Notes: generated by a model not told the origin, from the letters alone. A stretch of DNA of 64,000 nt from Planktothrix pseudagardhii (GCF_904830925.1 NZ_LR882967.1:3554106-3618105), one strand, 5' to 3'. Counted from the first letter of the stretch, positions 4,012-55,205 are shown. Numbers and translations: made by a program.

Positions 4012-5772
4012 TTATGAATCAAATTGTTGAGCATAAAATAAAGCATAACGTTCACCTTTTTCTAATAGCTCTTGATGGGTTCCTGATTCCACAATTTGAC
4101 CTTGTTCTAAGACTAAAATTCGAGTAGCACGTCTAACCGTTGCCAAACGATGAGCAATAATAAAAACGGTTCGATTCTGCATTAATCGTTCTAAAGCTTC
4201 TTGAACTAAGGCTTCTGATTCTGAATCTAAGGCTGATGTGGCTTCATCTAAAATTAAGATTCTGGGATTTAATAAAACAGCCCTAGCAATGGCAATTCGT
4301 TGTCGTTGTCCCCCGGATAAATTTACTCCTCGTTCTCCAACAATCGTTTGATAGCCATTCGGAAACTGCATAATAAACGAATCAGCATTGGCAATTTTTG
4401 CAGCTTCTTCGATATCTTTTAATTCATAATAAGCTTGACCAAAGGCAATATTTTGAGCAATGGTTCCTGAAAATAAGGTAATATCTTGGGGAACAATCCC
4501 AATTTGTCGCCGGAGACTTTTTAAGGTGACATCTTGAATATCAATATCATCAATTTTAATAGTTCCTGACTGGCGATCATAAAATCGGGGTAATAAACTC
4601 ACTAATGTTGTTTTTCCAGCCCCCGACGGCCCCACTAAAGCCACCATTTCCCCCGGTTTAACACATAAATTGAGATTCTGTAAAACCGGTTTATTGTGAT
4701 CTTGACTTTGAGAAAAATCCGTTTTAGGATAAGTAAAATTAACGTTATAATATTCGACTTTCCCGGTCACATGGGGTAAAATAAAAGCATTAGGTTTTTC
4801 AAGAACCGTTGGCTGCACGGCTAACAGTTCAAAAATGCGATCGCAAGAAGCTTGACCTTGTTTAAAATCACTATAATTACTCGTAGTTAAAGAGATGGGA
4901 TCTATTAATAACGCCACCGCCGCAATATAACTAATAAACCCACTTCCCGTTAAATTCCCTTGGGAGATTTGCCATCCTCCTAAAAAGAATAATAAAATTA
5001 CACTCATGGCTTCTAAAAAGCCAACCACCACAAATTGTAACGCCTTAACTTGTTCGGCTAAATATTTGGCTTTGCGATTTTGTTCGGCTTCTAAACTAAA
5101 GCGATTAATTTCATATTCTTCCGCCGCAAACGCTTGGACTAACCGAATTCCTCCAAACACTTCTGTTAATAACGCTGCTAAATTAGAAACTCGGTTTTGG
5201 CTATGGCGAGTAAAGGTTAATAATTTTTCGCCAAACCAACCAATTAATACTGCCATAAACGGGGCAATAATTAACGTAGCGAGGGTTAATTGCCAGTTGA
5301 GATAAATCATATATCCCAAAACTACAATTAACTGCAAAATACAGGGAACAAATTGATGGAAAAATTTATTAATTACTTCGCCAATGCGGTCAATATCTTC
5401 CGTGAGGCGATAGGCGAGATCCCCGGTTTTAGCGGTTTCAAAATAGCCAATATTCAGCCGTTGTAAATGACGATAAACTTGTTTTCTTAATTCCAAAGAA
5501 ATCGTTAAGGCAGCTTTTGCCATCAAGGTATCTTGACCATATTGTACCGTTCCCCGCACTAGAAAAACCACCGCCGCCACTCCGGCTAATTGAGCAATGG
5601 CGGAGACATTTCCAGCCCCAATATACCCCGCCATTTGCCCCGCTAACCACGCTAATAACGGCCAGAATACGGTAAAGGCAAGGGTACAAACTAATGCTTT
5701 AGCAATGGTTTGTCCTTGGGTGCGAATATAAGGAATTAATTCCCGGTAGCTAGAAGGTTGTTTTTGTTTCAA
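4012..5772 (-). CDS. ABC transporter, fused permease/ATP-binding (MsbA-like exporter)
   Basis: 586 aa. N-terminal 6-TM domain followed by Walker A GPSGAGKTT, the ABC signature LSGGQRQRIAIARA and Walker B ILILDEATSALD. Confidence 0.9.
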   Translation of the reverse strand: MKQKQPSSYRELIPYIRTQGQTIAKALVCTLAFTVFWPLLAWLAGQMAGYIGAGNVSAIAQLAGVAAVVFLVRGTVQYGQDTLMAKAALTISLELRKQVYRHLQRLNIGYFETAKTGDLAYRLTEDIDRIGEVINKFFHQFVPCILQLIVVLGYMIYLNWQLTLATLIIAPFMAVLIGWFGEKLLTFTRHSQNRVSNLAALLTEVFGGIRLVQAFAAEEYEINRFSLEAEQNRKAKYLAEQVKALQFVVVGFLEAMSVILLFFLGGWQISQGNLTGSGFISYIAAVALLIDPISLTTSNYSDFKQGQASCDRIFELLAVQPTVLEKPNAFILPHVTGKVEYYNVNFTYPKTDFSQSQDHNKPVLQNLNLCVKPGEMVALVGPSGAGKTTLVSLLPRFYDRQSGTIKIDDIDIQDVTLKSLRRQIGIVPQDITLFSGTIAQNIAFGQAYYELKDIEEAAKIANADSFIMQFPNGYQTIVGERGVNLSGGQRQRIAIARAVLLNPRILILDEATSALDSESEALVQEALERLMQNRTVFIIAHRLATVRRATRILVLEQGQIVESGTHQELLEKGERYALFYAQQFDS

Positions 5773-5888
5773 GTTGCGATCGCCAAAACACCTTTTTTAA
5801 CCTATCATATTTTAGAGCAGGGAACAGGGAACAGGGAGGAAAAGACTTCACTTGAATTATCCTTGTTCGTGTCTTCGTGTCTTTGAGG

Positions 5889-8279
5889 TTATAAGTATTG
5901 ATAATAAATTGCCCAAATTGCCATCGCTCTTAAATAATGACTGGCGCGAAATGTGCCAACGGCTGTAATGGCTTCGGGTGTACGAAATTGTAAACCATTT
6001 TCATAGATTTGTTTAACGACAACTTCCGTTAATTCTAACGCTTCCGCTTTCATTCCCATTTGTAAGAAAAACGCGGCTAACCCAAAATTAATTCCTGTCC
6101 AAACTTCTAAGGGATGGGTATCTTGAGGATTAACCGCTTCTCCCGTCGGTCTAACACCATTAGCTGCGCCGAATTGTCCATTATGAAACTTTTTAAAACA
6201 GGAATCATAAACGTTTTTTAAAGCCGAAATTGTACAATCAGCAGGAACAATATCCGGTAATTCTAATAATCTAGCATAGAATTGACCACATAATTGATCT
6301 GCCATGACCACATCAGAGCCACTACCACTATCCAAACGATAATATTGACCATTCCAAAGGTTTTTTTGATACAAAGGTTTAGCCGTTTCTAACCAAGCTT
6401 GATAGGTCGGAAGAACGCTTTTAGGAGACGGGGTAACGGCTTCCTTTTCTAACGCTTTCCCCATAGCAATCATCGCTTCTAATGCTGCTAACCATAACCC
6501 CCCGCAATAGGCACTAATTCCCTGTAATCTCCAATCATCAAAAGTTTGATCAGGTGCGCCACTATTTTCGGGAATTGAATCTTGATCTAAATCAAAGGTT
6601 TTCAGATAATTTAGGGTTTCAACCATCGCTGACCAACAATCTTTTAAAAACTCATAATCTGTTCCCCCCGTTAATCGAAAATCTCGATAAACTTGCAACA
6701 CAAAATCACAAGGTAAATCCTTCCAAAGGTTACAATCTTGATAACTGGTGTAATTGGTTTTTTCCCAAGGATGTTCATTGGGCGCGCCTAAATCATGGGG
6801 AGTTGCACCGACGGCTTTACGAATTGCAGAGGCTTGATTATAACCAATAATTCGCGGGGTATTATCGCCTTGATAAATCGCACGGGAATAGGCAATTAAT
6901 ATGGATTTTTCTAACTCTGGCCATAACATTAAAAGAGAAAATGATCCATATAAACGCACATCTAAACTTTCATACCAGCGATAATCTAAACATTCTAAAA
7001 CTGCAAATTGACCGATAGGATCACGTTCATCTGCCGCAGTCCAAAGTGCACCTCCATCCGTGAGTAAATATAGCTCATTAAAGAGTGCCATTTTAAACCA
7101 ATTGGGTAAATCTTGACGTTGTAAAATTGGGTTTTGCCACAGTTCAATCTGTTCTCGCCAAGTATCAGAATGCTTCATCGCTGTGCGAATCATTGACCAA
7201 GCATTGTGACCATTCCGACCAAAAAAATCAGTATAACGACGATAATAATTAATTCCTGATGCAAATTCAGTAATAGGTAAATCCCAGGCTAAATAAAATG
7301 GAATTTTGCGAGTTTTTCCCGGTCGAATTGTAAATTTAACTGCTAAAGCAACTGCAAGTCGTTCATCTTCTTTGGCCGGATGTTCACTTTCTTGATCTAA
7401 TAATGTGCCATCTTCAGCAAAATATTGCCAAATATCTTCCCCATTTCCTATAGGGTTCCAACGGGTTTGATAATACACTTCAACCGCAGGATTTATAATG
7501 GTGGCAATTGCCATTTGTCCTTCCCCTTCCCGCACCTCTTCATGGGTACTTAGACGAGTCATTAAACAGCCAATACGATGAAAATCTTCAACTAATCGAT
7601 TAACACTTCCGGCACTATTTCCCCATCGGGGTTGATATTCATAAACCGGACTGCCATCATCTCTGACTTTGACTTCAGGACTCGCTAAACTATTGGTAAA
7701 CCATCCAATCGTATTTTCCCAGGTTAATAATATACTTAAGGTAATCGGTTCATCCGTTGGGTTGTGAGCTATCCATTCAAAAATTGCAATAGGATAACTA
7801 CTTTCTTGATAATTTTTTGCCCAAACTGGAGAAAATTGTTCACAAGTTAATTGTGCTGAAAATACATTTTCATAAACAAACCAACTGCGAGGATATAACG
7901 CATGATAGGTTCCTGTTTGTTCAGGATAATTTTTAGGATTAGGATACCAATTCCACGCCGCTAAACTCCCATCTTCTGGCGGTTCTGTTGATAAAGCGTA
8001 AGCTTTTTTTTGACCGTTGATTTCTTCAAAAATACTAAATTGACAAGCGGGAAGATTTCTAAAAATATGTTCTCCCCCGTCCAAATGCCAAAGGTTAAAA
8101 TCTCCCCGTGAAGACCGTCCAATGCAACCTGCACCCAACCCCCCTAACGGCATTCCGTGCCAAGGGCCATCATCTAAATTACTGGCGTAGCGAACGGTAT
8201 AAGGTTTTTCCCACCCTAAACCAATGGGACGACTCCAAGTAGACTCAGGAATATTGTTAATAGGGCTAGAATGGGTCAT
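5889..8279 (-). CDS. GH116-family glycosidase (GBA2-type non-lysosomal glucosylceramidase / bile-acid beta-glucosidase-like)
   Basis: 796 aa. The N-terminal block WHGMPLGGLGAGCIGRSSRGDFNLWHL and overall length match GBA2/GH116 proteins as recalled. Confidence 0.6.
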   Translation of the reverse strand: MTHSSPINNIPESTWSRPIGLGWEKPYTVRYASNLDDGPWHGMPLGGLGAGCIGRSSRGDFNLWHLDGGEHIFRNLPACQFSIFEEINGQKKAYALSTEPPEDGSLAAWNWYPNPKNYPEQTGTYHALYPRSWFVYENVFSAQLTCEQFSPVWAKNYQESSYPIAIFEWIAHNPTDEPITLSILLTWENTIGWFTNSLASPEVKVRDDGSPVYEYQPRWGNSAGSVNRLVEDFHRIGCLMTRLSTHEEVREGEGQMAIATIINPAVEVYYQTRWNPIGNGEDIWQYFAEDGTLLDQESEHPAKEDERLAVALAVKFTIRPGKTRKIPFYLAWDLPITEFASGINYYRRYTDFFGRNGHNAWSMIRTAMKHSDTWREQIELWQNPILQRQDLPNWFKMALFNELYLLTDGGALWTAADERDPIGQFAVLECLDYRWYESLDVRLYGSFSLLMLWPELEKSILIAYSRAIYQGDNTPRIIGYNQASAIRKAVGATPHDLGAPNEHPWEKTNYTSYQDCNLWKDLPCDFVLQVYRDFRLTGGTDYEFLKDCWSAMVETLNYLKTFDLDQDSIPENSGAPDQTFDDWRLQGISAYCGGLWLAALEAMIAMGKALEKEAVTPSPKSVLPTYQAWLETAKPLYQKNLWNGQYYRLDSGSGSDVVMADQLCGQFYARLLELPDIVPADCTISALKNVYDSCFKKFHNGQFGAANGVRPTGEAVNPQDTHPLEVWTGINFGLAAFFLQMGMKAEALELTEVVVKQIYENGLQFRTPEAITAVGTFRASHYLRAMAIWAIYYQYL

Positions 8280-8382
8280 GCGGTTAAGGGATTATGCTAT
8301 TTTAACAAAACTCAATTCCCCGTTTGGGATGTTTTGAATTTTCTCATAATTGAGTTAAATAAGCAAGGGTAATTTTATTCCC

Positions 8383-8778
8383 TCAGTTTTTTTTATGATA
8401 AAAAATCCATAATTCTGCTAAATAATAAAATAGAATAATCCCAATTAAACTTGAGCTTAAATCGAGTAAACTAAAGGTACGACTGGGAAAAAGAGTTTGC
8501 ATCATTTCTTCTGCGATAGTGACTAGGGCAAAAACAAATGGCCCTAGGGGAAAAAATAGGGGATAAATGATAATCTTTTTTCCTCCCCAGGCTAAATGAG
8601 TTAAAAAAGAGGCAATTCCATATAAAATAAAGTGTCCATAGACATCATAATAGGGAATTTGTTCTAATAAACTATAGGGTAAATTTCCTAGATCTGCTGT
8701 AATTACAATTAATAATAACAACAAAAAATAGAGAAAACAAGCAATTTGCCAAGGTTTTTGAGATCGTTTCATTTTCAA
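8383..8778 (-). CDS. small membrane protein, possibly VanZ-like
   Basis: 131 aa with 4 hydrophobic helices. An Asp/His-containing loop (YYDVYGHFILYG) is reminiscent of the VanZ family. Weak call. Confidence 0.3.
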   Translation of the reverse strand: MKMKRSQKPWQIACFLYFLLLLLIVITADLGNLPYSLLEQIPYYDVYGHFILYGIASFLTHLAWGGKKIIIYPLFFPLGPFVFALVTIAEEMMQTLFPSRTFSLLDLSSSLIGIILFYYLAELWIFYHKKN

Positions 8779-8916
8779 CTGATTGATTCAGGGATTACTC
8801 TAAATCTACCACCGCATCCTTGAGGATTTCGGATGATTAACAGTAGAAAGGCTTGATGACTTAAAAATGTAATTTGTGTTATAAATAAACAAATGTCTTC
8901 TATTGATAGCTAAGTT

Positions 8917-10017
8917 ATGCCACCTCGCTTCATCAACGATCGCTATGCTCTATCCCCCAACCCACGATCAGGTGGAATGGCAGATGTCTACCGCGCAAGA
9001 GACTACAACCAAGAAGAACGGCTAGTTGTGGTAAAAGAATTCAAAAATGGACAAATTGAAGCAGATTTTCTAGCCGAATCCTTCAGACGTGAAACCCTAG
9101 CTCTCCAAGAGTTAAAACACCCTAGAATTGTGGAACTCCTTGATTCTGGAAAGGATGAAACTACGGGGAATTATTTTCTGGTTCTGGAGTGGATGGAGAA
9201 AGATTTAACAACACTTTTAAAAGAATCTCCCCCGGAAGATTGGGATTCATTTTGGAAAGCAATAGCCTTACCCACATTGGAAGCTTTAGCATTTTCCCAT
9301 AATCGCGGAATAATACACCGGGATATTAAACCTAGCAATATTTTAGTAGGAAGTGACGGTAAACTTAAACTTGCTGACTTTGGCATATCTAAGCTTAAAA
9401 GATATTTGGAACCCAATATTACACTCAAAGACTTTGTATCGCGTACATTCACGCCGCCAGAATTTGATGATGGTTCCTATACTTACACCCGCGATGTTTT
9501 CAGTTTTGGTGTATTGGTTTTGAAGTGTTTAACTAATATTGAACTAACAGAACATAATAATATTCCCAGCGCTCTAAAAGCGTTTAATGCACCCTCTGAA
9601 ATCGTAGAAGTAATCGAGCGTGCTGTTTCCTTAGACCCCGCAGAGCGTCAGCATAATGCAGATGTATTGTTAGCTGAAATTAATGCTATTCAAAGAAAGA
9701 CAAAAACAGGAGAAATTAAAAAACGTCCTTGCTTTATTGAGCTTACACCAAGGTGCTTAGAACGACTTAGGAATGAATTGAAGATTTCTTCAGAAGTTGA
9801 GATCAAGAATCTTATCCTTGAAGATATCAATAATGAATCTGGTTGTGGCATTCGTCCCTTTAAATTTAAGGACGACACCAACGATGCTGCGTCCCGTGAA
9901 GATCACTACGAAATTTATGGTATTTCCTATCGATATCATATAAAGATAGATCAAAACCAACGACAGCACCTATCCCTCTTCTGTCACTCTCCGAAATCAA
10001 CAAGTAATAAAAAGTAG
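8917..10017 (+). CDS. Ser/Thr protein kinase domain protein; the reading frame runs into the IS inverted repeat at 9970 (3'-disrupted, putative mkoA 5' part)
   Basis: Hanks-type kinase motifs: Gly-loop/Lys (GGMADVYRA..VVVKEF), catalytic loop IIHRDIKPSNIL, DFGISK, and the APE-like TPPEF. The last 16 codons (LSLFCHSPKSTSNKK*) are encoded by the IS terminal repeat. Confidence 0.8.
   Translation: MPPRFINDRYALSPNPRSGGMADVYRARDYNQEERLVVVKEFKNGQIEADFLAESFRRETLALQELKHPRIVELLDSGKDETTGNYFLVLEWMEKDLTTLLKESPPEDWDSFWKAIALPTLEALAFSHNRGIIHRDIKPSNILVGSDGKLKLADFGISKLKRYLEPNITLKDFVSRTFTPPEFDDGSYTYTRDVFSFGVLVLKCLTNIELTEHNNIPSALKAFNAPSEIVEVIERAVSLDPAERQHNADVLLAEINAIQRKTKTGEIKKRPCFIELTPRCLERLRNELKISSEVEIKNLILEDINNESGCGIRPFKFKDDTNDAASREDHYEIYGISYRYHIKIDQNQRQHLSLFCHSPKSTSNKK
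9970..9994. repeat. left terminal inverted repeat of the IS701-like element
   Basis: Matches the reverse complement of 13067-13091 at 24 of 25 positions. Confidence 0.7.
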
Positions 10018-10019
10018 AG

Positions 10020-11255
10020 TTATCCATTGGGAAAATAAGATTGAAATTGATTAATATTCTCAATTAATTTATGAAAACCCACTAATAAATGGCGGTCGGG
10101 AAAAATATCTAGCCACGGGACAATCAACCACAATATAATAGTAGGCTGAATTATTAAACGCAGATTATTTAAAACATTTTTCCATCCCTCTTTGTGATTC
10201 CATTGTTGATGAGTTGAGCAATCGGTGGTGTTTTTTTTGCTCTCAGATTCTCGGGGACTGCCTTGACTTAAAGACCGGAAAACTTCGGAGTTGAAACTAA
10301 TCATTAAATACACACAGAAAATGATTTCCCACCATTTTTCTATATCGGGAAAATCCGTCAACCGATAATCAGTCCAACCCAGTTCTTGTTTACATTGTCG
10401 AAATCCATATTCCACCCATGTTCTTAACCCGTATAAATTACCTAATGTCTTTTTCATCTGGCTTCTCTTCTCTGTTAAATTTGTCATGACAAACGAAGTT
10501 GATGTTTCTGGCATCGTTTCTGGATCTGTGGTAATTTCCCAATAGGTTCTTGTACTTCTTTTCCCAAATATGATTTCTCTAATATATCTGGTTTCTGATT
10601 CTTGATTGCTAAAAATCCTCTCAAATTTACACCATTTGTTGGCTCTAACTTTCTGCTCGCTTGACATCCAGACTCCATGATTACTTCTTATTGCTAGTAC
10701 CCAAGGAATTTGAAATTGATCTAATGTACTGATAAACGAACTACTTTCACCATAAAGGCTATCTGCTAATACCAATTCAATCTGAAATCCCCAATCAACC
10801 AATTCTGTTAGAATTTCTGATGCGATTTCAATCTTAGTTTTGTAGACATCTCCTTCTTTTAATGTTCCTTTGGGTTTAAATACTCTAAACACTAAAGGAA
10901 AGGTTATATTTTTATAAACACCGTAAGCATTAACTGATACTATTCCCCGATCTGTTTTGCCCACACTTCCCAAGTATTGTCTAGCTATATAGTCGGTTTT
11001 TTTTCCCTTTCTCCTATCTCCTGTCTCATCAATTATTACTATAATCTTCTCTCCTTTCAATGCTTTTAGAGTTCGGGCTAATCTTCTTTCCTTTAATTCC
11101 CTTGCTGACCAAGGCGAATTGGCTAAGAAATGATGCAGTGATTGTGGCGACCTAATTCCTACTATTTTAGCAATTTCCGGTAAAGATTTTCTCGGAATTG
11201 GTGAGATAATTCCTAGATGTAAGTAGGGCTTGCTGAAAAAGTAACAGAAAAGCAA
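10020..11255 (-). CDS. IS701/IS4-type DDE transposase, C-terminal about 400 aa (N-terminus severed by the nested IS)
   Basis: The block LGIISPIPRKSLPEIAKIVGIRSPQSLHHFLANSPWS is typical of IS701-family transposases. A DDE-type core follows (IIVIIDETGDRRKG ... VLADSLYG). Confidence 0.7.
   Translation of the reverse strand: MLFCYFFSKPYLHLGIISPIPRKSLPEIAKIVGIRSPQSLHHFLANSPWSARELKERRLARTLKALKGEKIIVIIDETGDRRKGKKTDYIARQYLGSVGKTDRGIVSVNAYGVYKNITFPLVFRVFKPKGTLKEGDVYKTKIEIASEILTELVDWGFQIELVLADSLYGESSSFISTLDQFQIPWVLAIRSNHGVWMSSEQKVRANKWCKFERIFSNQESETRYIREIIFGKRSTRTYWEITTDPETMPETSTSFVMTNLTEKRSQMKKTLGNLYGLRTWVEYGFRQCKQELGWTDYRLTDFPDIEKWWEIIFCVYLMISFNSEVFRSLSQGSPRESESKKNTTDCSTHQQWNHKEGWKNVLNNLRLIIQPTIILWLIVPWLDIFPDRHLLVGFHKLIENINQFQSYFPNG
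11234..11250. repeat. terminal inverted repeat of the inner IS
   Basis: TAGGGCTTGCTGAAAAA; its reverse complement occurs at 12865-12881. Confidence 0.7.
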
Positions 11256-11267
11256 AAGAATGATTAA

Positions 11268-12770
11268 CTAGCAAATGGAGTCAGAAGGATAAATAAGTTT
11301 TTTTTGAGATAAGGAGTTAACAGATAAATTCTGGTAATCAATAACTCGAAAAAAGTAATTGAACAAAAAAATTGACCTAAAAATCCGTCTAAGAATCACA
11401 GAGAGATTCATGACTAAAAAAGTAATAGCAATTGCTGTTTCGGAAGTATGAGCTAGTTTATTCATAATCCGATTCAGGCTAAATCTTCTTTTCCCTTGGC
11501 CAAATTTCCCCTCAATGGAATTCCGAATTTTTTCATCCTCTAACGCCTGTTTCTTAGTAGCTTTACTAAGATTTGCTGACGGTCTCCCTAATGGGAGGCC
11601 ACTGATTCTAATTCCTCTGTCTTTACACCAAGCTCGGTTGTCTCTAGTCCGGTAAATTTTATCTACATGGACTGATTCAGGATAATGCCCCGTGTATTCT
11701 TTAAAAGCCTCTATTTGTGTTTTTAAATCACAGGATTCGTTAAAATTATCCCAACTAATCCGGTCAAGAAATACATATTCATCCAGACAACTCGCAGACA
11801 ATTTAGCACCAAATTCTACTGACGTTCCGGCTTTACCTCGCACAATCGGACGAATATGAGGTTGGCTCAAACTGACGATTCTATCGGAAATGCTCTGTTT
11901 GTTATTCTCATACATCCATTGCTGTTGACGGTAAACTTCTGATATTACTAATAAACTCTTATATTGCTTGTTATTTAAGCAATCTAGCGTTGCTCCATTG
12001 TCGATGAGTTGGTCTATATGTCCTAAGTTTCGTTTAATATATTGCAGTTGTTTTTTAACTGCTTTTCGTCTTTTTTGTCGGGAAGGTCGGCGTTGTTTGG
12101 CTACTTCTAGGTAGTCTTTTCTGGCTGTTTTTCGATAAGTTCTTGGTTTCTTTTCTGATTTATCCTGACGACTTTTATGCAAACTATCAATGATTTTTTC
12201 TGTCTGTTCTCTGGCTTTATTTAAAATTTTTAAGTCTGTTGGATATGTGATATCCGCAGGTGCACAAGTCGCATCAGCTATTAATTTTCCTCGGTTTTTC
12301 CTCTCACTTCCCTCTTCAGCTTCTGATTGATTTTCTGAGGCTGGCTCGGAACTCGCCTCTCGCATTCTTTTGACCATTAACCGATTAACTTTATTCACTA
12401 AATTTACATTGATTCTCGTCCGAAAGTGCACTAACATTGAGGCATCAAATGGAGCTTCGTTCCTGTATTCTGACAACCCGATAAAATACTGCAAGTAGGG
12501 ATTTTCTTTGATTTGTTCTACTGTTTCTCGGTCGCTTATCCCTAATTTTTCTTTAATGATTAAGGCTCCTAATGCCATTCTAAATGTTTTGGCGGGTGCT
12601 CCCATCACAGATGAGAATAATTCTGCATATTCCACTTCAAATTCTTCCCACGGTATCCATTGAGCCATGATTACCCAGCGATTCTCTTCTGAGAGTTTTC
12701 CCTCAAATGGCAGTTTGAACTCTTCGGGTGGTGTTTTCTGTTGTTCGTCTTTACGGTACATTTTCCCCAA
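11268..12770 (-). CDS. DDE transposase, IS5/IS1182-like (InsH-N/DUF772-type N-terminal domain)
   Basis: 500 aa. The N-terminal block FKLPFEGKLSEENRWVIMAQWIPWEEFEVEYAELF...TFRMALGALIIKEKLGISDRE is typical of IS5/IS1182 transposase N-termini. A basic KRR-rich linker and a C-terminal DDE region follow. Confidence 0.75.
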   Translation of the reverse strand: MGKMYRKDEQQKTPPEEFKLPFEGKLSEENRWVIMAQWIPWEEFEVEYAELFSSVMGAPAKTFRMALGALIIKEKLGISDRETVEQIKENPYLQYFIGLSEYRNEAPFDASMLVHFRTRINVNLVNKVNRLMVKRMREASSEPASENQSEAEEGSERKNRGKLIADATCAPADITYPTDLKILNKAREQTEKIIDSLHKSRQDKSEKKPRTYRKTARKDYLEVAKQRRPSRQKRRKAVKKQLQYIKRNLGHIDQLIDNGATLDCLNNKQYKSLLVISEVYRQQQWMYENNKQSISDRIVSLSQPHIRPIVRGKAGTSVEFGAKLSASCLDEYVFLDRISWDNFNESCDLKTQIEAFKEYTGHYPESVHVDKIYRTRDNRAWCKDRGIRISGLPLGRPSANLSKATKKQALEDEKIRNSIEGKFGQGKRRFSLNRIMNKLAHTSETAIAITFLVMNLSVILRRIFRSIFLFNYFFRVIDYQNLSVNSLSQKKLIYPSDSIC

Positions 12771-12864
12771 CTCCTGCCAGGTTTTTGCGCTATTTTACAC
12801 CCATCCCTTGCACCTGATTCATTTTTTCTTGTCTTCTCCTCCCGCCTGTTCTGGCTTTTCGCCT

Positions 12865-12881
12865 TTTTTCAGCAAGCCCTA
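12865..12881. repeat. terminal inverted repeat of the inner IS
   Basis: TTTTTCAGCAAGCCCTA, the reverse complement of 11234-11250. Confidence 0.7.
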
Positions 12882-12884
12882 AGT

Positions 12885-13014
12885 ATTTAAAACATTCGTA
12901 ACTTCTCACTTCTGGGAATAGGTCTTTATAACCTTGACAATATTCATCAATCACTGAAACTGTTGGTTGTGCATCTCGGGCTAAATGTTTGAGCATCTGT
13001 AATTCTACATCCAT
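12885..13014 (-). pseudogene. N-terminal 43 codons of the IS701-like transposase, separated from the rest by the nested IS
   Basis: MDVELQMLKHLARDAQPTVSVIDEYCQGYKDLFPEVRSYECFKY continues, after removal of 11234-12881 (and 2 bp), into LHLGIISPIPRKS at 11230. Confidence 0.6.
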
Positions 13015-13066
13015 TACCCTATCCCCCTTCTAGCTACCCATCTGGTTTATTTTCTAATTTTACTCC

Positions 13067-13091
13067 TCGGAGACTGACAGAAGAGGGATAG
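13067..13091. repeat. right terminal inverted repeat of the IS701-like element
   Basis: Reverse complement of 9970-9994 with one mismatch. Confidence 0.7.
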
Positions 13092-13096
13092 TTATT

Positions 13097-15487
13097 TTGA
13101 ATGCTTGGTCTACTTCTTACTGGCAATTAGAACAACGTCGAGAACGTTCTTGGATTCTTCCCTACGAGTTCAGATTTGGAAAGCCACGTAATTTATATGA
13201 AGCAGAAGATGTAATTCGGGATTTAGAGGATGCAGTTATAGAGCATGAAGATAACTTAAAAGAACAGGAAGATGAGAAAGAAAAGCAACGAATATTTCAA
13301 GTTTGGTGGGATATTCTTAGAGCGAAGGGTGATTGGGAAAAAAATAGAGAGAAACCGATTAAATACGAAGGCTGTACTCGTGATGGAAACCGCGTTACCT
13401 TTGAATTATCAGAACTTCCAGAAGATGATTTAGCTGGACAACCACGCCATGTGACAAACCCCAAAGGAATTAGCATCTTGGGGGGAGATATTGAGCAAGT
13501 TATCGGTGACAAATTGACTCTTTATATTAAATATGGAGAATCAGAAAGACTCCCACAATCTGGAGAATTACGTTTTGATACTCGTGCTGCTGAAGTTGCC
13601 CTAAATCGACAAAAAAATGCCCTGGATGCGATTAGATTTGATAGGGGAGTCCGTTCAGATATTCGCCAATTACTTGTCAATCCCCAAGAAGTTCGTATTC
13701 CTGATTTAGAAGTTGATTTACAATTTATTCAATCTCTGAATGAATCACAGGAACAAGTTGTCAAAGCGGCACTTTCTACAGAAGATTTTCTAATTGTTCA
13801 AGGGCCACCAGGAACAGGAAAGACAACATTTATTACAGAAGTTGTTCTGCAAATTCTTAATCAAAAACCTGAGACTAGAATTTTGCTGAGTTCACAAACT
13901 CATGTTGCACTAGATAACGCCTTAGAACGAATTAAAGCTAAAGATCCTCACTTAAAATTGTTGCGAATTGGCAACCATGAAAGGGTATCAGAAAATGTTC
14001 ATTCTCTGTTACTGGAAGAACAAATGGAACAATGGAGAGAGTCGGCGATCGCTAAAGGACAGGAATTTATTGATAATTGGTCAGCACAACGAGGTATTTC
14101 TGGGCATAACAGTGAAATAGCCACACTATTTCAAGAAATGAGAAATCTGGGAATAAAAATTGAAACTTTCAGGGAAGAAGTTAATGCCTGGAAACAGGAT
14201 TTAGATGAAATTCTAGCAATAAATTACGACATAGAAAATCCAGATTCATTGTTAGAAACTCATATTCCCAAAGATAAGCTAGAGGAATGTCAAAGTATTG
14301 AAGTGGAAATTAACATTCTACGTCAGCAGTTAAAAGAAGCACGACAGCAACAGAAAGAAAAAGCCAAGCGCTTAAAAGAATTAACTAGAAGTAGTATCAA
14401 TCAACTTTTGAGATTATCGGTTGAGGAGATACAAGAACAGATTAATCAACTCATTGATCAAAATAATTCAGATTCAAAAATGCTACAAAACTTGCTAAAA
14501 ATTCAAACAGAATGGTTTGAGCAGTTTGGTCGAAATGACAAATTCAATATACCTTTAATTAAGCGATCGCAAGTAATAGCTGGGACTTGTATCGGAATTC
14601 CTAGAGAGATTCAAGACATAGAATTTGACCTGTGTATTGTTGATGAAGCTTCAAAAGCTACGGCGACAGAAGTATTAGTTCCAATGGCGCGATCGCATCG
14701 CTGGATATTGGTTGGCGACCCTAAACAACTGCCACCCTTTAAAGATGAAGTTAGCAGAAATTCTGACTTTTTAGACGAATACGAACTGACTCAGGATGAT
14801 ATTCGAGAAACCCTATTTGATCGACTACTTAGGACACTCCCAGATGGGTGTCACAAGATGTTAACAATTCAACATCGGATGGTTGCACCAATTGGTGATC
14901 TGGTCAGTGAATGCTTTTATGAGGGTCAGCTAAAAAGTGCCAGGACTGATATCGATAAAGACCTGGCTAAAATATTACTAAAACCCGTTACTTGGTTAAC
15001 CACAACAAAACTTAAAAATTATCGTGAACAGTCTGTCAATTCTAGCTTTAACAATACCTGTGAAGTAAAAGTCATTGTTGAGTTTCTCAAGCAGCTAAAT
15101 CAAATAGCAGTACAAGCTGAAAAAAAATACAGCGTCGCTGTTTTAACCGGGTATGCAGCACAGCTAAAATTACTTAATCGTAGCCTTAATTCAGAATTAA
15201 AAAATTGGCAAGCATTAACAGTTGAGTGTAATACAGTAGATGCCTTCCAAGGACGCGAAGCTGATATTGCCGTGTATTCTGTAACTCGTTCTAACAGACA
15301 AGGTAAAGTGGGTTTTCTGCGTGATGCAGAACGATTAAATGTGGCTTTATCCAGAGGTAAAGTGGGTTTAGTAATTGTGGGAGATCATTACTTCTGTCGA
15401 ACTTCACAGGAGAATCCATTACACCGAGTTTTGGATTATATTGAACGTCACACTGAAAATTGCGCTTTAACCGAGCCTGGGTTATAA
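13097..15487 (+). CDS. Upf1/DNA2-like SF1 helicase (COG1112-type), 5'-truncated by the IS (putative mkoA 3' part)
   Basis: Walker A LIVQGPPGTGKTTF, Walker B/DEAS-type box LCIVDEASKA, and motifs VGDPKQLPP, TIQHRMVAPIG and AFQGREADIAVYS...LNVALSRGK, as in AAA_11/AAA_12 helicases. The first in-frame ATG is more than 300 codons in. The frame is open back to a TAA inside the IS repeat. Confidence 0.8.
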   Translation: MNAWSTSYWQLEQRRERSWILPYEFRFGKPRNLYEAEDVIRDLEDAVIEHEDNLKEQEDEKEKQRIFQVWWDILRAKGDWEKNREKPIKYEGCTRDGNRVTFELSELPEDDLAGQPRHVTNPKGISILGGDIEQVIGDKLTLYIKYGESERLPQSGELRFDTRAAEVALNRQKNALDAIRFDRGVRSDIRQLLVNPQEVRIPDLEVDLQFIQSLNESQEQVVKAALSTEDFLIVQGPPGTGKTTFITEVVLQILNQKPETRILLSSQTHVALDNALERIKAKDPHLKLLRIGNHERVSENVHSLLLEEQMEQWRESAIAKGQEFIDNWSAQRGISGHNSEIATLFQEMRNLGIKIETFREEVNAWKQDLDEILAINYDIENPDSLLETHIPKDKLEECQSIEVEINILRQQLKEARQQQKEKAKRLKELTRSSINQLLRLSVEEIQEQINQLIDQNNSDSKMLQNLLKIQTEWFEQFGRNDKFNIPLIKRSQVIAGTCIGIPREIQDIEFDLCIVDEASKATATEVLVPMARSHRWILVGDPKQLPPFKDEVSRNSDFLDEYELTQDDIRETLFDRLLRTLPDGCHKMLTIQHRMVAPIGDLVSECFYEGQLKSARTDIDKDLAKILLKPVTWLTTTKLKNYREQSVNSSFNNTCEVKVIVEFLKQLNQIAVQAEKKYSVAVLTGYAAQLKLLNRSLNSELKNWQALTVECNTVDAFQGREADIAVYSVTRSNRQGKVGFLRDAERLNVALSRGKVGLVIVGDHYFCRTSQENPLHRVLDYIERHTENCALTEPGL

Positions 15488-15569
15488 TTCCTATATAGCC
15501 TTTATCGGGTAAATAATCTGTATATTACTCATTTGAAAACTGGTAGATTACGAAATAAGTAGGTGTTCA

Positions 15570-15779
15570 ATGAATAGCCACAAAGTAACATTAGAAATTT
15601 CGGAAACCCTTTTTGAGCAACTCTCTTTACTAGCTGACCTAAAAGAAGAATCAATAGAATATTTAGCAATTGAAATTATTGCTGCTAAATTACCTGGTTT
15701 AATTCAAAGAGAGAGTCAATTGAAGCAATTATTAGAAGCAATCAAACCTGATAGCATTCATAGTGAAATTGGGTTATAA
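15570..15779 (+). CDS. putative antitoxin (MazE/ribbon-helix-helix-like) of a MazF pair
   Basis: 69-aa acidic ORF ending 6 bp upstream of the MazF-like gene. Assigned on position and size only. Confidence 0.45.
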   Translation: MNSHKVTLEISETLFEQLSLLADLKEESIEYLAIEIIAAKLPGLIQRESQLKQLLEAIKPDSIHSEIGL

Positions 15780-15785
15780 TAATAT

Positions 15786-16148
15786 ATGAATTCTGATAAT
15801 CCTCAGTTGTATATTCCTCGTCAAGGTGATATCATTTGGATTGACTTTATTCCGCAAATCGGCAGAGAACAGGCAGGTCGTCGTCCAGCTATTGTTATCT
15901 CAAAAACAACATATAATCGCCGAGTTGGACTAGCTTTAGTCTGTCCAATTACTAGCCGAGTAAAAGGTTATCCTTTTGAAGTAGCAATTCCAGAAGGATT
16001 AGCAGTATCAGGAGTTGTTTTAGCCGATCAAATTAAATCCTTTGATTGGCAAGCAAGGCAAGCAGAGTTTGCTTGTAAAATGCCTCCAGAAGTCCTAATT
16101 GAAGTAGTTGCTAAATTAATGAACCTATTACCCGAAATAGAGATTTAG
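15786..16148 (+). CDS. mazF: MazF/PemK-family endoribonuclease toxin
   Basis: 120 aa. GDIIWIDFIPQIGREQAGRRPAIVIS ... LALVCPITSRVKGYPFEV ... VVLADQIKSFDWQARQA matches the PemK/MazF signature. Confidence 0.8.
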   Translation: MNSDNPQLYIPRQGDIIWIDFIPQIGREQAGRRPAIVISKTTYNRRVGLALVCPITSRVKGYPFEVAIPEGLAVSGVVLADQIKSFDWQARQAEFACKMPPEVLIEVVAKLMNLLPEIEI

Positions 16149-16158
16149 TTAAATAAAT

Positions 16159-17700
16159 ATGAAGTTAGAAAATCTCGATTTTTCTCCAGAAGAACTGCGT
16201 CGCTACAATAATCGTACAGGCTTCGATTTAGTGAGTTGTAAACAAGTCGGTTTACCTGTTTATAAAATTACTGTTCAAGCTCTAACTCAACTGCATAAAC
16301 CAATTCCACCAATAGAAGAATATGTCTTGAAATCGATTAATGCTGGTTTATCCTCTGAAACGGATATTGCTGGATTTCTTGGCATTGAATTGCCTATTGT
16401 CAGGGATGCAATGATCAATTTAAGGATGAGTGAGGATATAGACCTCATAGCTCCTGATGGCTCTCAGATACAGGTTTGGAAGTTGACGAAAAAAGGTGAA
16501 GGAACACTCCGCGAGGCTAAAATTATTGTTCCAGAAGAGCGAACATTTGATATCAATTTTGATGGACTTTTACGGTATCCTCGTTGGTACGGAAAGTTAG
16601 AGTCACGTTTACTTAAGCAAAAAGATTTGCGTGATCAAGACATTATAGAAATTGACCCCTTTCCGAAAAAGTCACCAGAAATTTCCGATCTTAAACTCAA
16701 AGATGTAGACAAAATTATTCGCCAGATTGATGGAGCCAGCAAAGCCAGAGTTAAGCAAGAGCGAGACCTTTTAGCCTTGAAAGCTATTGAGCGCAGGTCG
16801 ATATTTTTTCAACCGGCTTTGATGCTAATTTATAAGGCGAAAGATAGTGATAATATTCAGGTATCTTTTGCGATTGATGATGTTATTTCTAATGATCATG
16901 AAGAAATTTTTGATCGTACTAATGGAATCAAAAAACTTCAGATATTAGAAAACCTAAAAGAGAGCGCACCCCGAAAGTTAGCTGAAGCAGTTTTAGGATA
17001 TGAATTTGTTGCTCAAGCTCCTTTACAAGAAATTGAAGCGATTAAGGAAAAAGTTTTTGCTGCTCAAGCTCAAATAGAAGAAAAAATACAAACAACTCAA
17101 AATACTCTTGAACAAACTGAAGATGATCAGGAAAAACTCATTCTTGATCAAAAGCTTCAAGAAGCACAACAGCAAATAAAAGAACTTCAAGCTCAACTTG
17201 ATTCTATTCTAGCTTCAGTTCCGATGCGATGGCTAGAAATGTACGAACACCGTCCTATCCTCGAACAAGCACTTAAAGAGAGTCAAAAACGTTTAATGAT
17301 TATCTCTCCTTGGATTCGAGCAAGTTCTGTGGATAAAAAGTTTATTCAACAGTTTGAAAATCTTCTCAAACGGGGAGTACAAGTTTTGATTGGGTACGGT
17401 TTAGGAGAAAACGATGATAAAAATTCAAAATCTGATATTCAAGCTGAGAAAAATCTTGAAAAATTAGCAAATCAGTACCAAGGTAATTTTATCCTTAAAC
17501 GTCTTGGAGATACCCACGCAAAAATCCTCATATCTGATGGAAAATTTGCTGTTACAACAAGTTTTAATTGGCTTTCTTTTAAGGGCGATCGCGATCGCAC
17601 CTTTCGAGATGAACGGGGAACACTTGTATCTGACCCCCAAAAAATTGATGAACTTTTTGATAGCTATAGATCTCGAATAATTAATACAAAATCTACTTGA
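16159..17700 (+). CDS. PLD-superfamily (single HKD) nuclease-domain protein with a long N-terminal region and central coiled coil (putative mkoB)
   Basis: The C-terminal domain LMIISPWIRASSVDKKFIQQFENLLKRGVQVLIGYG ... GDTHAKILISDGKFAVTTSFNWLS carries one HxK(x4)D motif, as in Nuc/Zucchini-type PLD nucleases. The N-terminal roughly 330 aa show no motif I recognise. Confidence 0.7.
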   Translation: MKLENLDFSPEELRRYNNRTGFDLVSCKQVGLPVYKITVQALTQLHKPIPPIEEYVLKSINAGLSSETDIAGFLGIELPIVRDAMINLRMSEDIDLIAPDGSQIQVWKLTKKGEGTLREAKIIVPEERTFDINFDGLLRYPRWYGKLESRLLKQKDLRDQDIIEIDPFPKKSPEISDLKLKDVDKIIRQIDGASKARVKQERDLLALKAIERRSIFFQPALMLIYKAKDSDNIQVSFAIDDVISNDHEEIFDRTNGIKKLQILENLKESAPRKLAEAVLGYEFVAQAPLQEIEAIKEKVFAAQAQIEEKIQTTQNTLEQTEDDQEKLILDQKLQEAQQQIKELQAQLDSILASVPMRWLEMYEHRPILEQALKESQKRLMIISPWIRASSVDKKFIQQFENLLKRGVQVLIGYGLGENDDKNSKSDIQAEKNLEKLANQYQGNFILKRLGDTHAKILISDGKFAVTTSFNWLSFKGDRDRTFRDERGTLVSDPQKIDELFDSYRSRIINTKST

Positions 17701-17724
17701 TCTAGGCTGCTTTATAGAAAATCA

Positions 17725-20610
17725 TTATTTCGCTTCCATCCAATTTTGTCCCGCGTGAATATCTACAACCAAAGGCACACTTAAAGGAAGCACTTGTTCC
17801 ATAATAGTCTTAATTTTGGGTTGAATTTCTTCCCATTCCGTCTCAGGAATTTCAAACACTAATTCATCATGAACTTGTAATACTAATCGAGACTGATATT
17901 GAGTTAATAATTGATGCACTTGTACCATTGCCATTTTAATAATATCAGCACTAGAACCTTGAATAGGAGCGTTAGCAGCGGCTCTTAATAGTTGGGCATC
18001 ATTTTGACCCATTTTTTTTCCTAATTGGCTTAAATCAATGGAATTAATATCAACTCCTTTTAAATTGTTTAAGCTGCTTCCTTGAAAATCAAAATACCGT
18101 CTTCTTGCTAATATAGTTTCGACATACCCTTGAGCAATTGCTTGTCTTTTAACCGTTTCTAAATAAGCAAAAACCTGGGAATAGCGTTGGTTAAATCGTT
18201 CAATAAATTGCTTACCTTCTGCACTACTCACCTTTGCTTCCCGTGCAAATCGTTGGGCTCCCATTCCATAGATTACACCAAAATTAATGGTTTTCCCTAA
18301 CCGTCGTTCATCGGATGTTACGGTGTCTTTTTCAAATAATAATTTAGCGGTCACGGTATGAACATCTTGATTATTTTGATAAGCGTCTAATAAAATAGGT
18401 TCTTGACTTAAATGAGCTAAAATTCTGAGTTCAATTTGGGAATAGTCGGCTGATACTAATAACCAGTTGGGTTCCGTTGTAAAGGCTTTTCTAATTTTTC
18501 GAGAAAATTCAGTTTTAATCGGAATATTCTGTAAATTAGGATTAGAAGAAGATAACCGTCCTGTTGCGGTAACGGTTTGGTTAAAACTGGTATGAATGCG
18601 TTGTTTAGCATCAACCATTGTGGGTAACGCATCCACATAAGTTGACTTCAGTTTCGCTAAAGTTCGATATTCTAATATAACATCAATAATAGGATGATCT
18701 CCTTGTAATTTTTCTAAAACATTGACATCCGTTGAATAGCCTGTTTTTGTTTGGCGCGTTTTTTTGGTATTTAATTCTAATTTTTCAAATAACAGTTGGC
18801 TAAGTTGTTTAGGAGAACCTAAATTAAATTTTTCTCCAGCTAGTTCATAAGCTTGATTTTCAATAATTTCTAACTGTTTATCGAGTTGCTCTGCCAAAGT
18901 TTGCAAATATTCAATATCGAGATTTACTCCCCAATATTCCATATCGGCTAAAACAAATTCTAAAGGTTGTTCAACATCGGTTAGAAGTTTCATCAGATGA
19001 GGCTTATCTATCAATTTGGCTTTGATGCTTTCTACTAATTGAAAAGTGACATAAACCTGCATTCCGCAATATTCAGCGACTTGATTAATATTAATATCTG
19101 CAATAGTTTTCCCTTTAGGAACTAATTCATCATAACTAGGAGCGATTAATTCAGATCCTAAATGTCTGAGACTTAAATCAATTAAATTATGATTAGCTTC
19201 CGGGTTTAAAATATAATCGGCTAACATTGGATCAAAGACAACACCTTGTAAATTAATGCCCTGAGATCTAAAAATTGACCGATCATATTTAGCATTTTGA
19301 AACGTTTTAGGATAGCGATCACTTTCTAAAATCGGACGTAAAAGATCTAACGTTTGGACTTTATCTAAATTTGTTCCTTGAGTATGATTTAACGGAATAT
19401 AAGCCACATCGGTTGCTTCTGTTCCCCAACAACATCCTATTCCAACTAATTCCGCTTTTAGGAATTCTAAAGAGGTGGTTTCCGTATCCCAAGCAACGGG
19501 ATAGTTAACATCAGTATGCTGTTTTAAAATATCAACTAACTCTTCTAAAGCGTCTGAAGTTTGAATTAAACGCACTTTAATGTTAGACACAGGACTATTT
19601 AACCGTTTTTGCTCTTGGTAAGCTGTGGTTTCTTCCGGTGTCCAAAAATCGATATCGTCCCCAACAGTAACCGGATTTTCTGTAACTTCTGTTTGAATTA
19701 TTCCTTTAAATTGCTGTTGAATTTGATTGATTTTTCCTAAAAATGTTTGAAAGGCTAATTTCTCTAAAATAGGTTGAATTTTAGCGACATCAAACCCTTG
19801 TAATTTAAAATTTTCTAAACCAACCTCTAAAGGTACATCCTGAATAATTCGCGCTAAGGTTTGAGAATGATCCGCATCGGCTTTTCCTTCCTCTAATTTT
19901 TGGCGAGTTGCGCCTTTAATATCCTCAAGATGAGCATAGATATTTTCTAAGGAACCATATTCTCCTAATAATTTAACAGCCGTAGTTTTCCCAATGCCTT
20001 TCACCCCTGGAATATTATCGGATTTATCGCCACATAATGCCTTATAATCAATCACCTGATGAGGATAAATCTGTAATTTATCATAAACTTGTTGAGCTAA
20101 AAACTCTGTAGGAACACTACCTTTGCCCGGTTCTAAATGTAAAATACTAATCTGTTTTTCAAGATCAATTAATTGAAATAAATCCTGATCTCCCGATAAA
20201 ACTTTAACTCGATATCCTTCCCGGCTTCCCCGGTTGGCTAAGGTTCCTAAAACATCATCCGCTTCATAACCCGGAGCCGTAACAATGCTTAAATCAAACG
20301 CTTGTAATAACGCTTGTAAATTCTGCACATCTTCAATAAAATCTTGAGGCGTTTCAGAGCGATCCGCTTTGTAATTTTCATCCGCTTCATGACGAAACGT
20401 AGGAACTCCTAAATCAAAAGCGATCGCTAAATAATCCGGCTTTTGACTTGCCATAACGTCTAATAATGACTTCAAAAACCCAAAACAAACACTGGTCGGA
20501 ATACCCGTTGACGTGCGTAACCCTCCTTGGCGACTTTTCCCAAAGGCAAAATAGGAACGAAATGCCAACGAATGACCATCAACCAAAAGTAATAGGGGAT
20601 GTTCCAACAC
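17725..20610 (-). CDS. polA: DNA polymerase I
   Basis: 961 aa with a 5'-3' exonuclease N-terminus (LLLVDGHSLAFRSYFAF), a 3'-5' exonuclease region, and Pol A motifs (DYSQIELRILAH, RRLGKTINFGVIYG, QVHDELVFE). Confidence 0.95.
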   Translation of the reverse strand: MLEHPLLLLVDGHSLAFRSYFAFGKSRQGGLRTSTGIPTSVCFGFLKSLLDVMASQKPDYLAIAFDLGVPTFRHEADENYKADRSETPQDFIEDVQNLQALLQAFDLSIVTAPGYEADDVLGTLANRGSREGYRVKVLSGDQDLFQLIDLEKQISILHLEPGKGSVPTEFLAQQVYDKLQIYPHQVIDYKALCGDKSDNIPGVKGIGKTTAVKLLGEYGSLENIYAHLEDIKGATRQKLEEGKADADHSQTLARIIQDVPLEVGLENFKLQGFDVAKIQPILEKLAFQTFLGKINQIQQQFKGIIQTEVTENPVTVGDDIDFWTPEETTAYQEQKRLNSPVSNIKVRLIQTSDALEELVDILKQHTDVNYPVAWDTETTSLEFLKAELVGIGCCWGTEATDVAYIPLNHTQGTNLDKVQTLDLLRPILESDRYPKTFQNAKYDRSIFRSQGINLQGVVFDPMLADYILNPEANHNLIDLSLRHLGSELIAPSYDELVPKGKTIADININQVAEYCGMQVYVTFQLVESIKAKLIDKPHLMKLLTDVEQPLEFVLADMEYWGVNLDIEYLQTLAEQLDKQLEIIENQAYELAGEKFNLGSPKQLSQLLFEKLELNTKKTRQTKTGYSTDVNVLEKLQGDHPIIDVILEYRTLAKLKSTYVDALPTMVDAKQRIHTSFNQTVTATGRLSSSNPNLQNIPIKTEFSRKIRKAFTTEPNWLLVSADYSQIELRILAHLSQEPILLDAYQNNQDVHTVTAKLLFEKDTVTSDERRLGKTINFGVIYGMGAQRFAREAKVSSAEGKQFIERFNQRYSQVFAYLETVKRQAIAQGYVETILARRRYFDFQGSSLNNLKGVDINSIDLSQLGKKMGQNDAQLLRAAANAPIQGSSADIIKMAMVQVHQLLTQYQSRLVLQVHDELVFEIPETEWEEIQPKIKTIMEQVLPLSVPLVVDIHAGQNWMEAK

Positions 20611-55143: not shown

Positions 55144-55205
55144 ACGCACCGCACTCAAAATGCGGCGGCTTCGGTCGTGAGAGTTCGAGTCTCTCTCCGC
55201 CCATT
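55124..55205 (+). tRNA. tRNA-Leu (anticodon CAA)
   Basis: Acceptor stem GGGCGGG/CCGCCCA and anticodon loop cuCAAaa. A long variable arm and T-arm GAGAGTTCGAGTCTCTC (GTTCGAGTC). CCA is not encoded. Confidence 0.85.

Follow-up and report, generated by a model that had tools for sequence, protein, structure and literature searches.

Mokosh systems guard Escherichia coli from phages, and mutations in the ATP site of their helicase or in the active site of their phospholipase D (PLD) nuclease abolish this defence (10.1101/2022.05.11.491447). In type I Mokosh, a serine/threonine kinase (STK) domain is part of the helicase gene, and a second gene encodes the PLD nuclease (10.1101/2022.05.11.491447). 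Here, we compare these systems with a locus in a 64,000-nucleotide stretch of the Planktothrix pseudagardhii genome (GCF_904830925.1, NZ_LR882967.1:3554106-3618105)—referred to as the window, with positions counted from its first nucleotide. With high confidence, this locus can be read as a type I Mokosh operon of the order mkoA-mazE-mazF-mkoB, whose mkoA is broken by an insertion sequence (IS) and most likely off, and which carries a mazEF toxin–antitoxin cassette inside.

Type I Mokosh—for example, that of enterotoxigenic E. coli (ETEC) H10407—consists of a fusion of an STK with a COG1112/Upf1-like helicase, followed by the gene of a PLD nuclease with a single HKD motif. The locus in the window has the same content and order, as a first-pass annotation of this DNA had proposed with a description of type I that agrees with Millman et al. 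2022. It differs from type I in that mkoA carries a nested IS701::IS5 insertion at codon 352/353, that mazEF lies between the two genes, and that it belongs to a cyanobacterial clade. Type II Mokosh (MkoC, E. coli YjhR-like) shares the Upf1-like helicase and the PLD nuclease; however, these form a single polypeptide without a kinase there. The presence of two genes and of a kinase domain, hence, sets the locus apart from type II. Homology between Mokosh and animal factors of the Piwi-interacting RNA (piRNA) pathway has been proposed in a preprint (10.1101/2022.12.12.520048). Animal MOV10L1/Zucchini (PLD6) and Upf1 share the helicase superfamily and the single-HKD PLD fold, whereas identity is distant (12–18%), accessory domains differ, and there is no sign of small-RNA biogenesis. 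A 2026 review lists Mokosh as incompletely characterized, and a literature search for the Mokosh mechanism or for a link of Mokosh to MazF or to cyanobacteria yielded nothing beyond the discovery paper, the one on eukaryotic homology, and reviews.

The assignment to type I is carried by profile matches. The PADLOC profile of MkoA (PDLC03920) is matched by the kinase ORF (open reading frame) over positions 5–385 of 1112 (E 4.8e-75) and by the helicase ORF over positions 394–1107 (E 5e-192), and the PADLOC profile of MkoB (PDLC03922) by the 513-aa protein at the end of the locus (E 2.2e-89). In the intact orthologue of P. tepida PCC 9214, MkoA gives a single match over positions 5–1107 (E 1e-270), such that both type I profiles are found at full length. 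The MkoC profile is matched more weakly, with 2.4e-36 on the helicase part and 2.6e-20 on the PLD part.

Five ORFs on the plus strand had been annotated from the sequence, and all five are found in their places, with domain matches far past chance. The kinase ORF (8917–10017, 366 aa) matches Pkinase in Pfam (1.5e-35) and shows K40, HRD at 134–136, and DFG at 154–156; its nearest PDB sequences are StkP and PknB. The helicase ORF (13097–15487, 796 aa, with TTG as mechanical start) matches AAA_11 (4.6e-46) and AAA_12 (4.9e-46), and IGHMBP2, Upf1/NAM7, DNA2, and SEN1 are the nearest PDB sequences of this half. All motifs quoted earlier were recovered, namely HRDIKPSN and DFG in the kinase as well as the Walker A motif GPPGTGKT, DEAS, and QGRE in the helicase. 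Downstream, a MazE-like antitoxin ORF (15570–15779, 69 aa) ends 6 nt before mazF (15786–16148, 120 aa), whose product—an endoribonuclease toxin—matches PemK_toxin (PF02452, 7.5e-27) and the NCBIfam model of MazF (PRK09907, 126.1 bits at a cut-off of 120). The PLD protein gene mkoB (16159–17700, 513 aa) starts 10 nt past mazF and its product matches PLDc_2 (6.2e-09, 36.2 bits at a cut-off of 27). Hence, neither a helicase outside the Upf1 group nor a C terminus outside the PLD group—the two outcomes named beforehand as speaking against a Mokosh locus—is what the Pfam and PADLOC matches show. The database names of the deposited proteins are generic: “DEAD/DEAH box helicase,” “phospholipase D-like domain-containing protein,” and “endoribonuclease MazF.”

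In its kind, the locus is thus ordinary: it belongs to a known system, is disrupted, and bears a lineage-specific toxin–antitoxin insertion. Mokosh type I gains a cleanly documented clade from cyanobacteria, whereas the present knowledge of the Mokosh mechanism stays as it was.

The insertion in mkoA

From their sequences, we read the kinase and helicase ORFs as two halves of one mkoA. The proposal that a putative mkoA is interrupted by an IS is borne out by the complementary profile positions of the two ORFs and by in silico excision: deletion of the IS together with one TA restores an unbroken ORF of 1150 aa with the junction ...NQRQH-LVI-LNAWS..., of which 1069 residues are the same in the protein of Planktothrix sp. 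FACHB-1365. Uninterrupted orthologues, looked for as a check on that proposal, exist as a single 1150-aa ORF in FACHB-1365 and in P. tepida PCC 9214. The intact mkoA would accordingly code for one protein with an N-terminal kinase, a linker, and a Upf1-like helicase; kinase and helicase in one polypeptide is a property of the ancestral gene, and in the window these parts are physically separate.

The break point lies between codons 352 and 353, in the kinase–helicase linker. Codons 1–352 (8917–9972, plus strand) encode the Hanks-type Ser/Thr kinase and the first part of the linker; codons 353–1150 and the stop codon (13091–15487, plus strand) encode the remaining linker and the Upf1-like SF1 (superfamily 1) helicase. 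The kinase ORF as first annotated, therefore, stands for codons 1–352 and not for its end, since its last 14–15 residues (SLFCHSPKSTSNKK) are encoded by the IS, after a leucine codon kept from mkoA. Similarly, the TTG at 13097, at which the helicase ORF starts, is an internal leucine codon of the intact gene, 6 nt past the end of the IS.

The insertion itself had been recognized correctly, but it is not the single element described at first: two elements are nested, both with transposase genes on the minus strand. The outer one is an IS701-family element of 3116 bp including its passenger (9973–13088, minus strand). It ends in inverted repeats (9970–9994 and 13067–13091) of 22–25 nt that are 96% complementary, with no further copy within the window. 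Its transposase ORFs on the minus strand—one at 10020–11255 and an N-terminal fragment at 12790–13014—match the NCBIfam IS701 model (NF033540) with 232.6 bits at a cut-off of 150. The boundaries follow from a comparison with the empty site of FACHB-1365 (locus L001), which reads CAGCAC-CTAG-TTATTT, whereas the filled site in the window reads CAGCAC-CTA[TCCCTC...GAGGGA]TAG-TTATTT. Hence, the outer element spans 9973–13088 and was inserted into the target CTAG, of which TA is duplicated (9971–9972 and 13089–13090). A direct repeat of 4 or 5 bp at the outer ends was also considered and is not present; the duplication seen against the empty site is the 2-bp TA.

Nested in the IS701 transposase gene lies a second element, of the IS5 family and about 1654 bp long (11226–12879 within 2 nt, minus strand), which appears ISMae6-like by its size. 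It is bounded by perfect inverted repeats of 17 nt (11224–11240 and 12865–12881) with TAAGTA on either side; its duplication would measure between 4 and 6 nt. Its transposase ORF (11268–12770, minus strand) matches the NCBIfam IS5 model (NF033578) with 480 bits at a cut-off of 275. Cutting out 1660 nt in silico yields an IS701 transposase ORF of 449 aa. As the IS5-family element splits this ORF, the outer element is no longer autonomous. In sum, an IS701-family element has landed in the linker of mkoA and truncated the kinase part, and this element is in turn inactivated by an IS5-family insertion.

No further lesion is apparent in the gene. Among 16 intact orthologues, 347 columns are invariant; rebuilt MkoA retains 343 of these as well as K40, HRD, DFG, Walker A, DEAS, and QGRE. 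Relative to P. tepida, the ratio of the proportions of nonsynonymous and synonymous differences (pN/pS) reaches 0.38 in the kinase half of mkoA and 0.23 in its helicase half; mazF stands at 0.10 and mkoB at 0.04. Because of these low ratios, the retained columns, and the retained catalytic motifs, the insertion is taken as clean, recent, and the sole lesion, with no sign of pseudogene drift.

The mazEF cassette at the mkoA–mkoB junction

In the window, mkoA and mkoB are co-directional and split by the 671-nt mazEF cassette. Planktothrix genomes show three states at this one site between the gene of a 132-aa membrane protein and polA. In state 1, represented by a lineage-2-type assembly (L100, GCA_000464805.1), mkoA (1149 aa) and mkoB (512 aa) overlap by ATGA and mazEF is lacking. 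State 2 is mkoA-mazE-mazF-mkoB, as found intact in P. tepida (L099), with mkoA interrupted in the window, and in FACHB-1365 (L001), which also shares the upstream neighbors of the window—a GH116 glycosidase gene and the 132-aa membrane-protein gene. State 3 consists of mazEF only (L093–L098, L104, and L105); it is found in P. agardhii of the lineage-1 type—P. agardhii NIVA-CYA 126/8 (GCA_000710505.1, strain identity inferred) and five other assemblies—and on two metagenome contigs. A comparison of states 1 and 2 puts the cassette precisely at the border of the two genes: TTA, the final sense codon of mkoA, precedes it, and the ATG of mkoB follows.

The operon of P. tepida PCC 9214 is intact as a whole at the same site, with mkoA of 1150 aa, the 69-aa ORF, MazF, and MkoB of 513 aa, followed by polA; with the IS removed, the window is 98.2% identical to it at the nucleotide level over 13 kb. 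Along 5500–18100 of the window, divergence from P. tepida is patchy, with between 0 and 33 mismatches in each 500 nt. One divergent block starts just past the IS, with 2 mismatches in 500 nt at the junction and 22 in 13105–13604. Within mkoA, the proportion of synonymous differences (pS) amounts to 0.013 for the kinase half and 0.093 for the helicase half. Such patchy divergence of two lineage-3 strains fits a recombination mosaic.

Like chromosomal MazEF (E. coli MazF/ChpA), the cassette encodes a MazF that passes the equivalog cut-off, with a small putative antitoxin gene directly upstream. Unlike there, it lies inside a defence operon, and the 69-aa antitoxin ORF is without a match in Pfam or NCBIfam. 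This ORF is co-conserved with mazF in all homologous loci but one (L092), and its product, which by its sequence may be a ribbon–helix–helix protein, is 56–61% identical in Hormoscilla and in the metagenome locus L084 and 45–49% identical in loci without Mokosh. The annotation had raised the question whether mazEF is conserved inside the locus. This holds for certain Planktothrix lineages and not elsewhere: among 80 Mokosh loci from a scan of species-representative genomes, none carries mazEF between mkoA and mkoB. We, hence, regard mazEF as a putative autonomous type II toxin–antitoxin cassette that an ancestor of this lineage acquired right at the junction of mkoA and mkoB. Most likely, it acts as an addiction module stabilizing itself and, incidentally, the island; its sole survival in state 3 fits what such a module would predict.

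The alternative that survives best—even though it is unlikely—takes mazEF as a functional third part of a Mokosh sub-variant, with MazF as a back-up RNase or with MazE controlled by the kinase/helicase. The precise placement of the cassette with both ORFs intact and the 10 nt between mazF and mkoB are in its favor, and so are the relatives of MazF. Outside Planktothrix, the closest ones are P0123 (77% identity) and the proteins of Hormoscilla (75–78%); over the Hormoscilla loci and L084 together, MazF is 70–78% identical. In a neighbor-joining tree of 61 MazF homologues, the protein of the window groups with P0121–P0124 and P0126, with no bootstrap support; every member of this clade with known context—one member is without context—adjoins type I Mokosh, whereas homologues at 73% identity or less are found beside unrelated genes. 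In four Hormoscilla loci (L027, L028, L059, and L070) and on the metagenome scaffold L084:2288-8363, mazEF lies on the same strand 110–380 nt downstream of mkoB. As MkoA shares only about 60% identity between Hormoscilla and Planktothrix, and the nearer relative Microcoleus (83%) lacks mazEF, the link looks recurrent rather than simply co-inherited.

On the other hand, mazEF is missing from the surrounding 8 kb at about 75 of the 80 type I loci, its placement varies between the inside of the operon in Planktothrix and the region past mkoB elsewhere, and MazF is cut to about 57 residues in two of the Hormoscilla loci (L027 and L070). Both mkoA-mkoB alone (lineage-2 type) and mazEF alone (lineage 1) persist. 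Furthermore, the link comprises three lineages only and a tree without bootstrap support, and toxin–antitoxin genes are common in defence islands generally. A metagenome scan with the alignment of the MazF clade found only two close loci, both of the mazEF-only type of P. agardhii. That a MazEF subclade has been repeatedly recruited by type I Mokosh of filamentous cyanobacteria and works with it is, therefore, a doubtful proposition, and slightly more so than a third-part role as such. If true, it would provide a second RNA-targeting effector, or a trigger under the MkoA kinase/helicase, and thereby a three-part “Mokosh-MazEF” variant. The reading of mazEF as an addiction module remains the preferred one.

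State of the system and its loss within Planktothrix

Because the kinase part is truncated and the helicase part is without an evident start or promoter, the Mokosh system is probably inactive in this strain. By contrast, mazEF, and possibly also mkoB, would still be expressible. The earlier choice between a decayed Mokosh system and a divergent variant resolves into both: the IS marks a strain-specific decay, and the operon with mazEF is a lineage variant that is intact in P. tepida.

Several points weigh against this picture. The “switched off” state is deduced from gene structure, and type II Mokosh works without a kinase; the helicase fragment could keep some activity if expressed from the internal TTG at 13097. 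A promoter/terminator scan of 8700–17800 gave 20 sites, with 25 expected by chance and, thus, no excess over shuffled sequence, which makes it uninformative on expression of the helicase half and of mazEF. RNA sensing and the PLD substrate of Mokosh are not established in the literature searched. As for mazEF, its addiction role is derived from the pattern of survival, and two other lineages also have their mazEF, with the MazF nearest to that of the window, beside Mokosh—a hint beyond a passive passenger.

Taken further, the points on the helicase would lead to a split locus that is still functional as three polypeptides, with kinase, helicase, and PLD nuclease made separately. Both halves of mkoA are full-length open frames that bear all catalytic motifs and show no drift, and helicase plus PLD might suffice, given that type II Mokosh lacks the kinase domain. 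However, the helicase half begins only at the internal TTG just past the IS, no promoter-like site is seen upstream of it on the plus strand, and the transposase genes of the IS face the opposite way. In addition, all intact orthologues (about 120 proteins and 80 loci) are a single fused gene, which argues that the fusion probably matters. We, hence, consider a functional split locus improbable and retain an inactive system as the likely state.

The genus is IS-rich. With 282 elements that make up 3.7% of the chromosome, strain No713, which the window matches, has the heaviest IS load among 13 completed Planktothrix genomes, and the IS lists of lineage 3 include the IS701 and the ISMae6-like IS5 families (PMC9366434). 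Planktothrix mcy microcystin genes have been inactivated by IS as well (PMC2464740, PMC9366434). The mcy case resembles the present one in the genus and in the course of events—IS insertion and then deletion of flanking genes—but the target here is an anti-phage operon and not a peptide-synthetase cluster.

Other strains show further lesions at the same site. In FACHB-1365, mkoA is intact and the homology of mkoB (L001:14125-15074) breaks off near residue 251, with some 200 nt left to the end of the contig, which suggests an independent disruption of mkoB, possibly by another repeat or IS. In one short assembly, a lineage-2-type allele (L103:1-1490, SRR948298) has a frame shift of mkoA near residue 740 in the helicase part, which is either real or an assembly error. 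State 3 retains relics of both mko genes: the last 13 nt of mkoA stand upstream of mazE, and the mazF–mkoB spacer with the start codon of mkoB (ATGA) runs directly into the final ~45 nt of that gene. Thus, state 3 is a double-deletion derivative of state 2. In place of mkoA, it has an unrelated stretch of about 300 nt that includes a GGGGTTTGGTCTCCAAACCC-type palindrome (e.g., L094:9377-10446).

These relics also bear on the order of events. One could suppose that mazEF was the first resident of the site and that the Mokosh genes were assembled around it afterward, as many P. agardhii genomes have mazEF alone at the same site, and the mazEF block is 93.6% similar between lineage 1 and the window while flanking genes are at 85–87%. 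The remnants of mkoA and mkoB contradict this and mark the mazEF-only allele as derived by deletion; moreover, outside Planktothrix the mko genes are contiguous and often overlap by ATGA. A resident mazEF is, hence, highly improbable, and insertion of the cassette into an existing mkoA-mkoB pair is preferred.

Ordered in this way, the alleles form a natural series at one site for the loss of a defence operon in an IS-rich bloom-forming genus: mkoAB; intact mkoA-mazEF-mkoB; mkoA broken by the IS; mkoB truncated in FACHB-1365; and both mko genes gone, so that mazEF alone remains. The series illustrates toxin–antitoxin persistence and supplies alleles to probe Mokosh and mazEF in cyanobacteria.

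Conservation of the gene pair and the predicted MkoB nuclease

The fused kinase–helicase and PLD pair is kept from Planktothrix to Acidobacteriota. In the great majority of the 80 loci—which span cyanobacteria, Acidobacteriota, Planctomycetota, Pseudomonadota, and others—a fused kinase–helicase gene is followed by an mkoB homologue within 0–200 nt. Exceptions are loci that end at contig edges, a few larger gaps, truncated or short loci, and two rearranged ones. A search with the joined halves finds full-length MkoA relatives of about 1150 aa in FACHB-1365 (93%) and Microcoleus (83%), with about 55–65% identity in Nostoc, Hormoscilla, and Roseofilum. The view of kinase, helicase, and PLD protein as unrelated neighbors—which the first-pass annotation had named as the scenario that would speak against it, with kinase and helicase conserved independently and not linked to a PLD gene—is ruled out for all practical purposes by the match of the two ORFs to neighboring stretches of one MkoA profile that do not overlap, by the single ORF that the empty site restores, by the linkage of fused mkoA and adjacent mkoB across phyla, and by the 4-nt ATGA overlap that mkoA and mkoB share in Microcoleus.

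For the second gene of the pair, the proposed PLD-like fold at the C terminus of the 513-aa protein agrees with the MkoB and PLDc_2 matches given above. The THAKILISD motif, noted already from the sequence, spans T452-HAK-ILIS-D460 and falls on invariant columns of the MkoB alignment. It contains the single HKD motif of the protein, H453-x-K455-x4-D460 (17515–17538), located in the C-terminal PLD domain; H453, K455, and D460 are invariant in 26 MkoB homologues. By analogy with Nuc and Zucchini, MkoB would dimerize to form one active site.

The AlphaFold model of MkoB has a mean predicted local distance difference test (pLDDT) score of 57.9, and is confident in a winged-helix-like segment (~50–120), in long helices (~290–350), and in most of the PLD core (~365–460). 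In view of this low mean, Foldseek matches were used solely for the confident winged-helix and PLD segments. They comprise TrmBL2, vaccinia F13, FAM83, mouse Zucchini/PLD6 (4ggk), PLD2, and MarR winged helices, with an E of 1.5e-4 for Zucchini 4ggk from the low-confidence model. No meaningful match was found for the MkoB profile among PDB sequences. On the basis of the model, MkoB is a predicted winged-helix protein with a single-HKD PLD nuclease domain. The best Foldseek match, archaeal TrmBL2, also has an N-terminal winged helix and a C-terminal PLD-like domain; these architectures may be parallel.

An Rfam scan of the window gave no match inside the Mokosh locus; the sole match in the 64 kb is one tRNA at 55122–55203.

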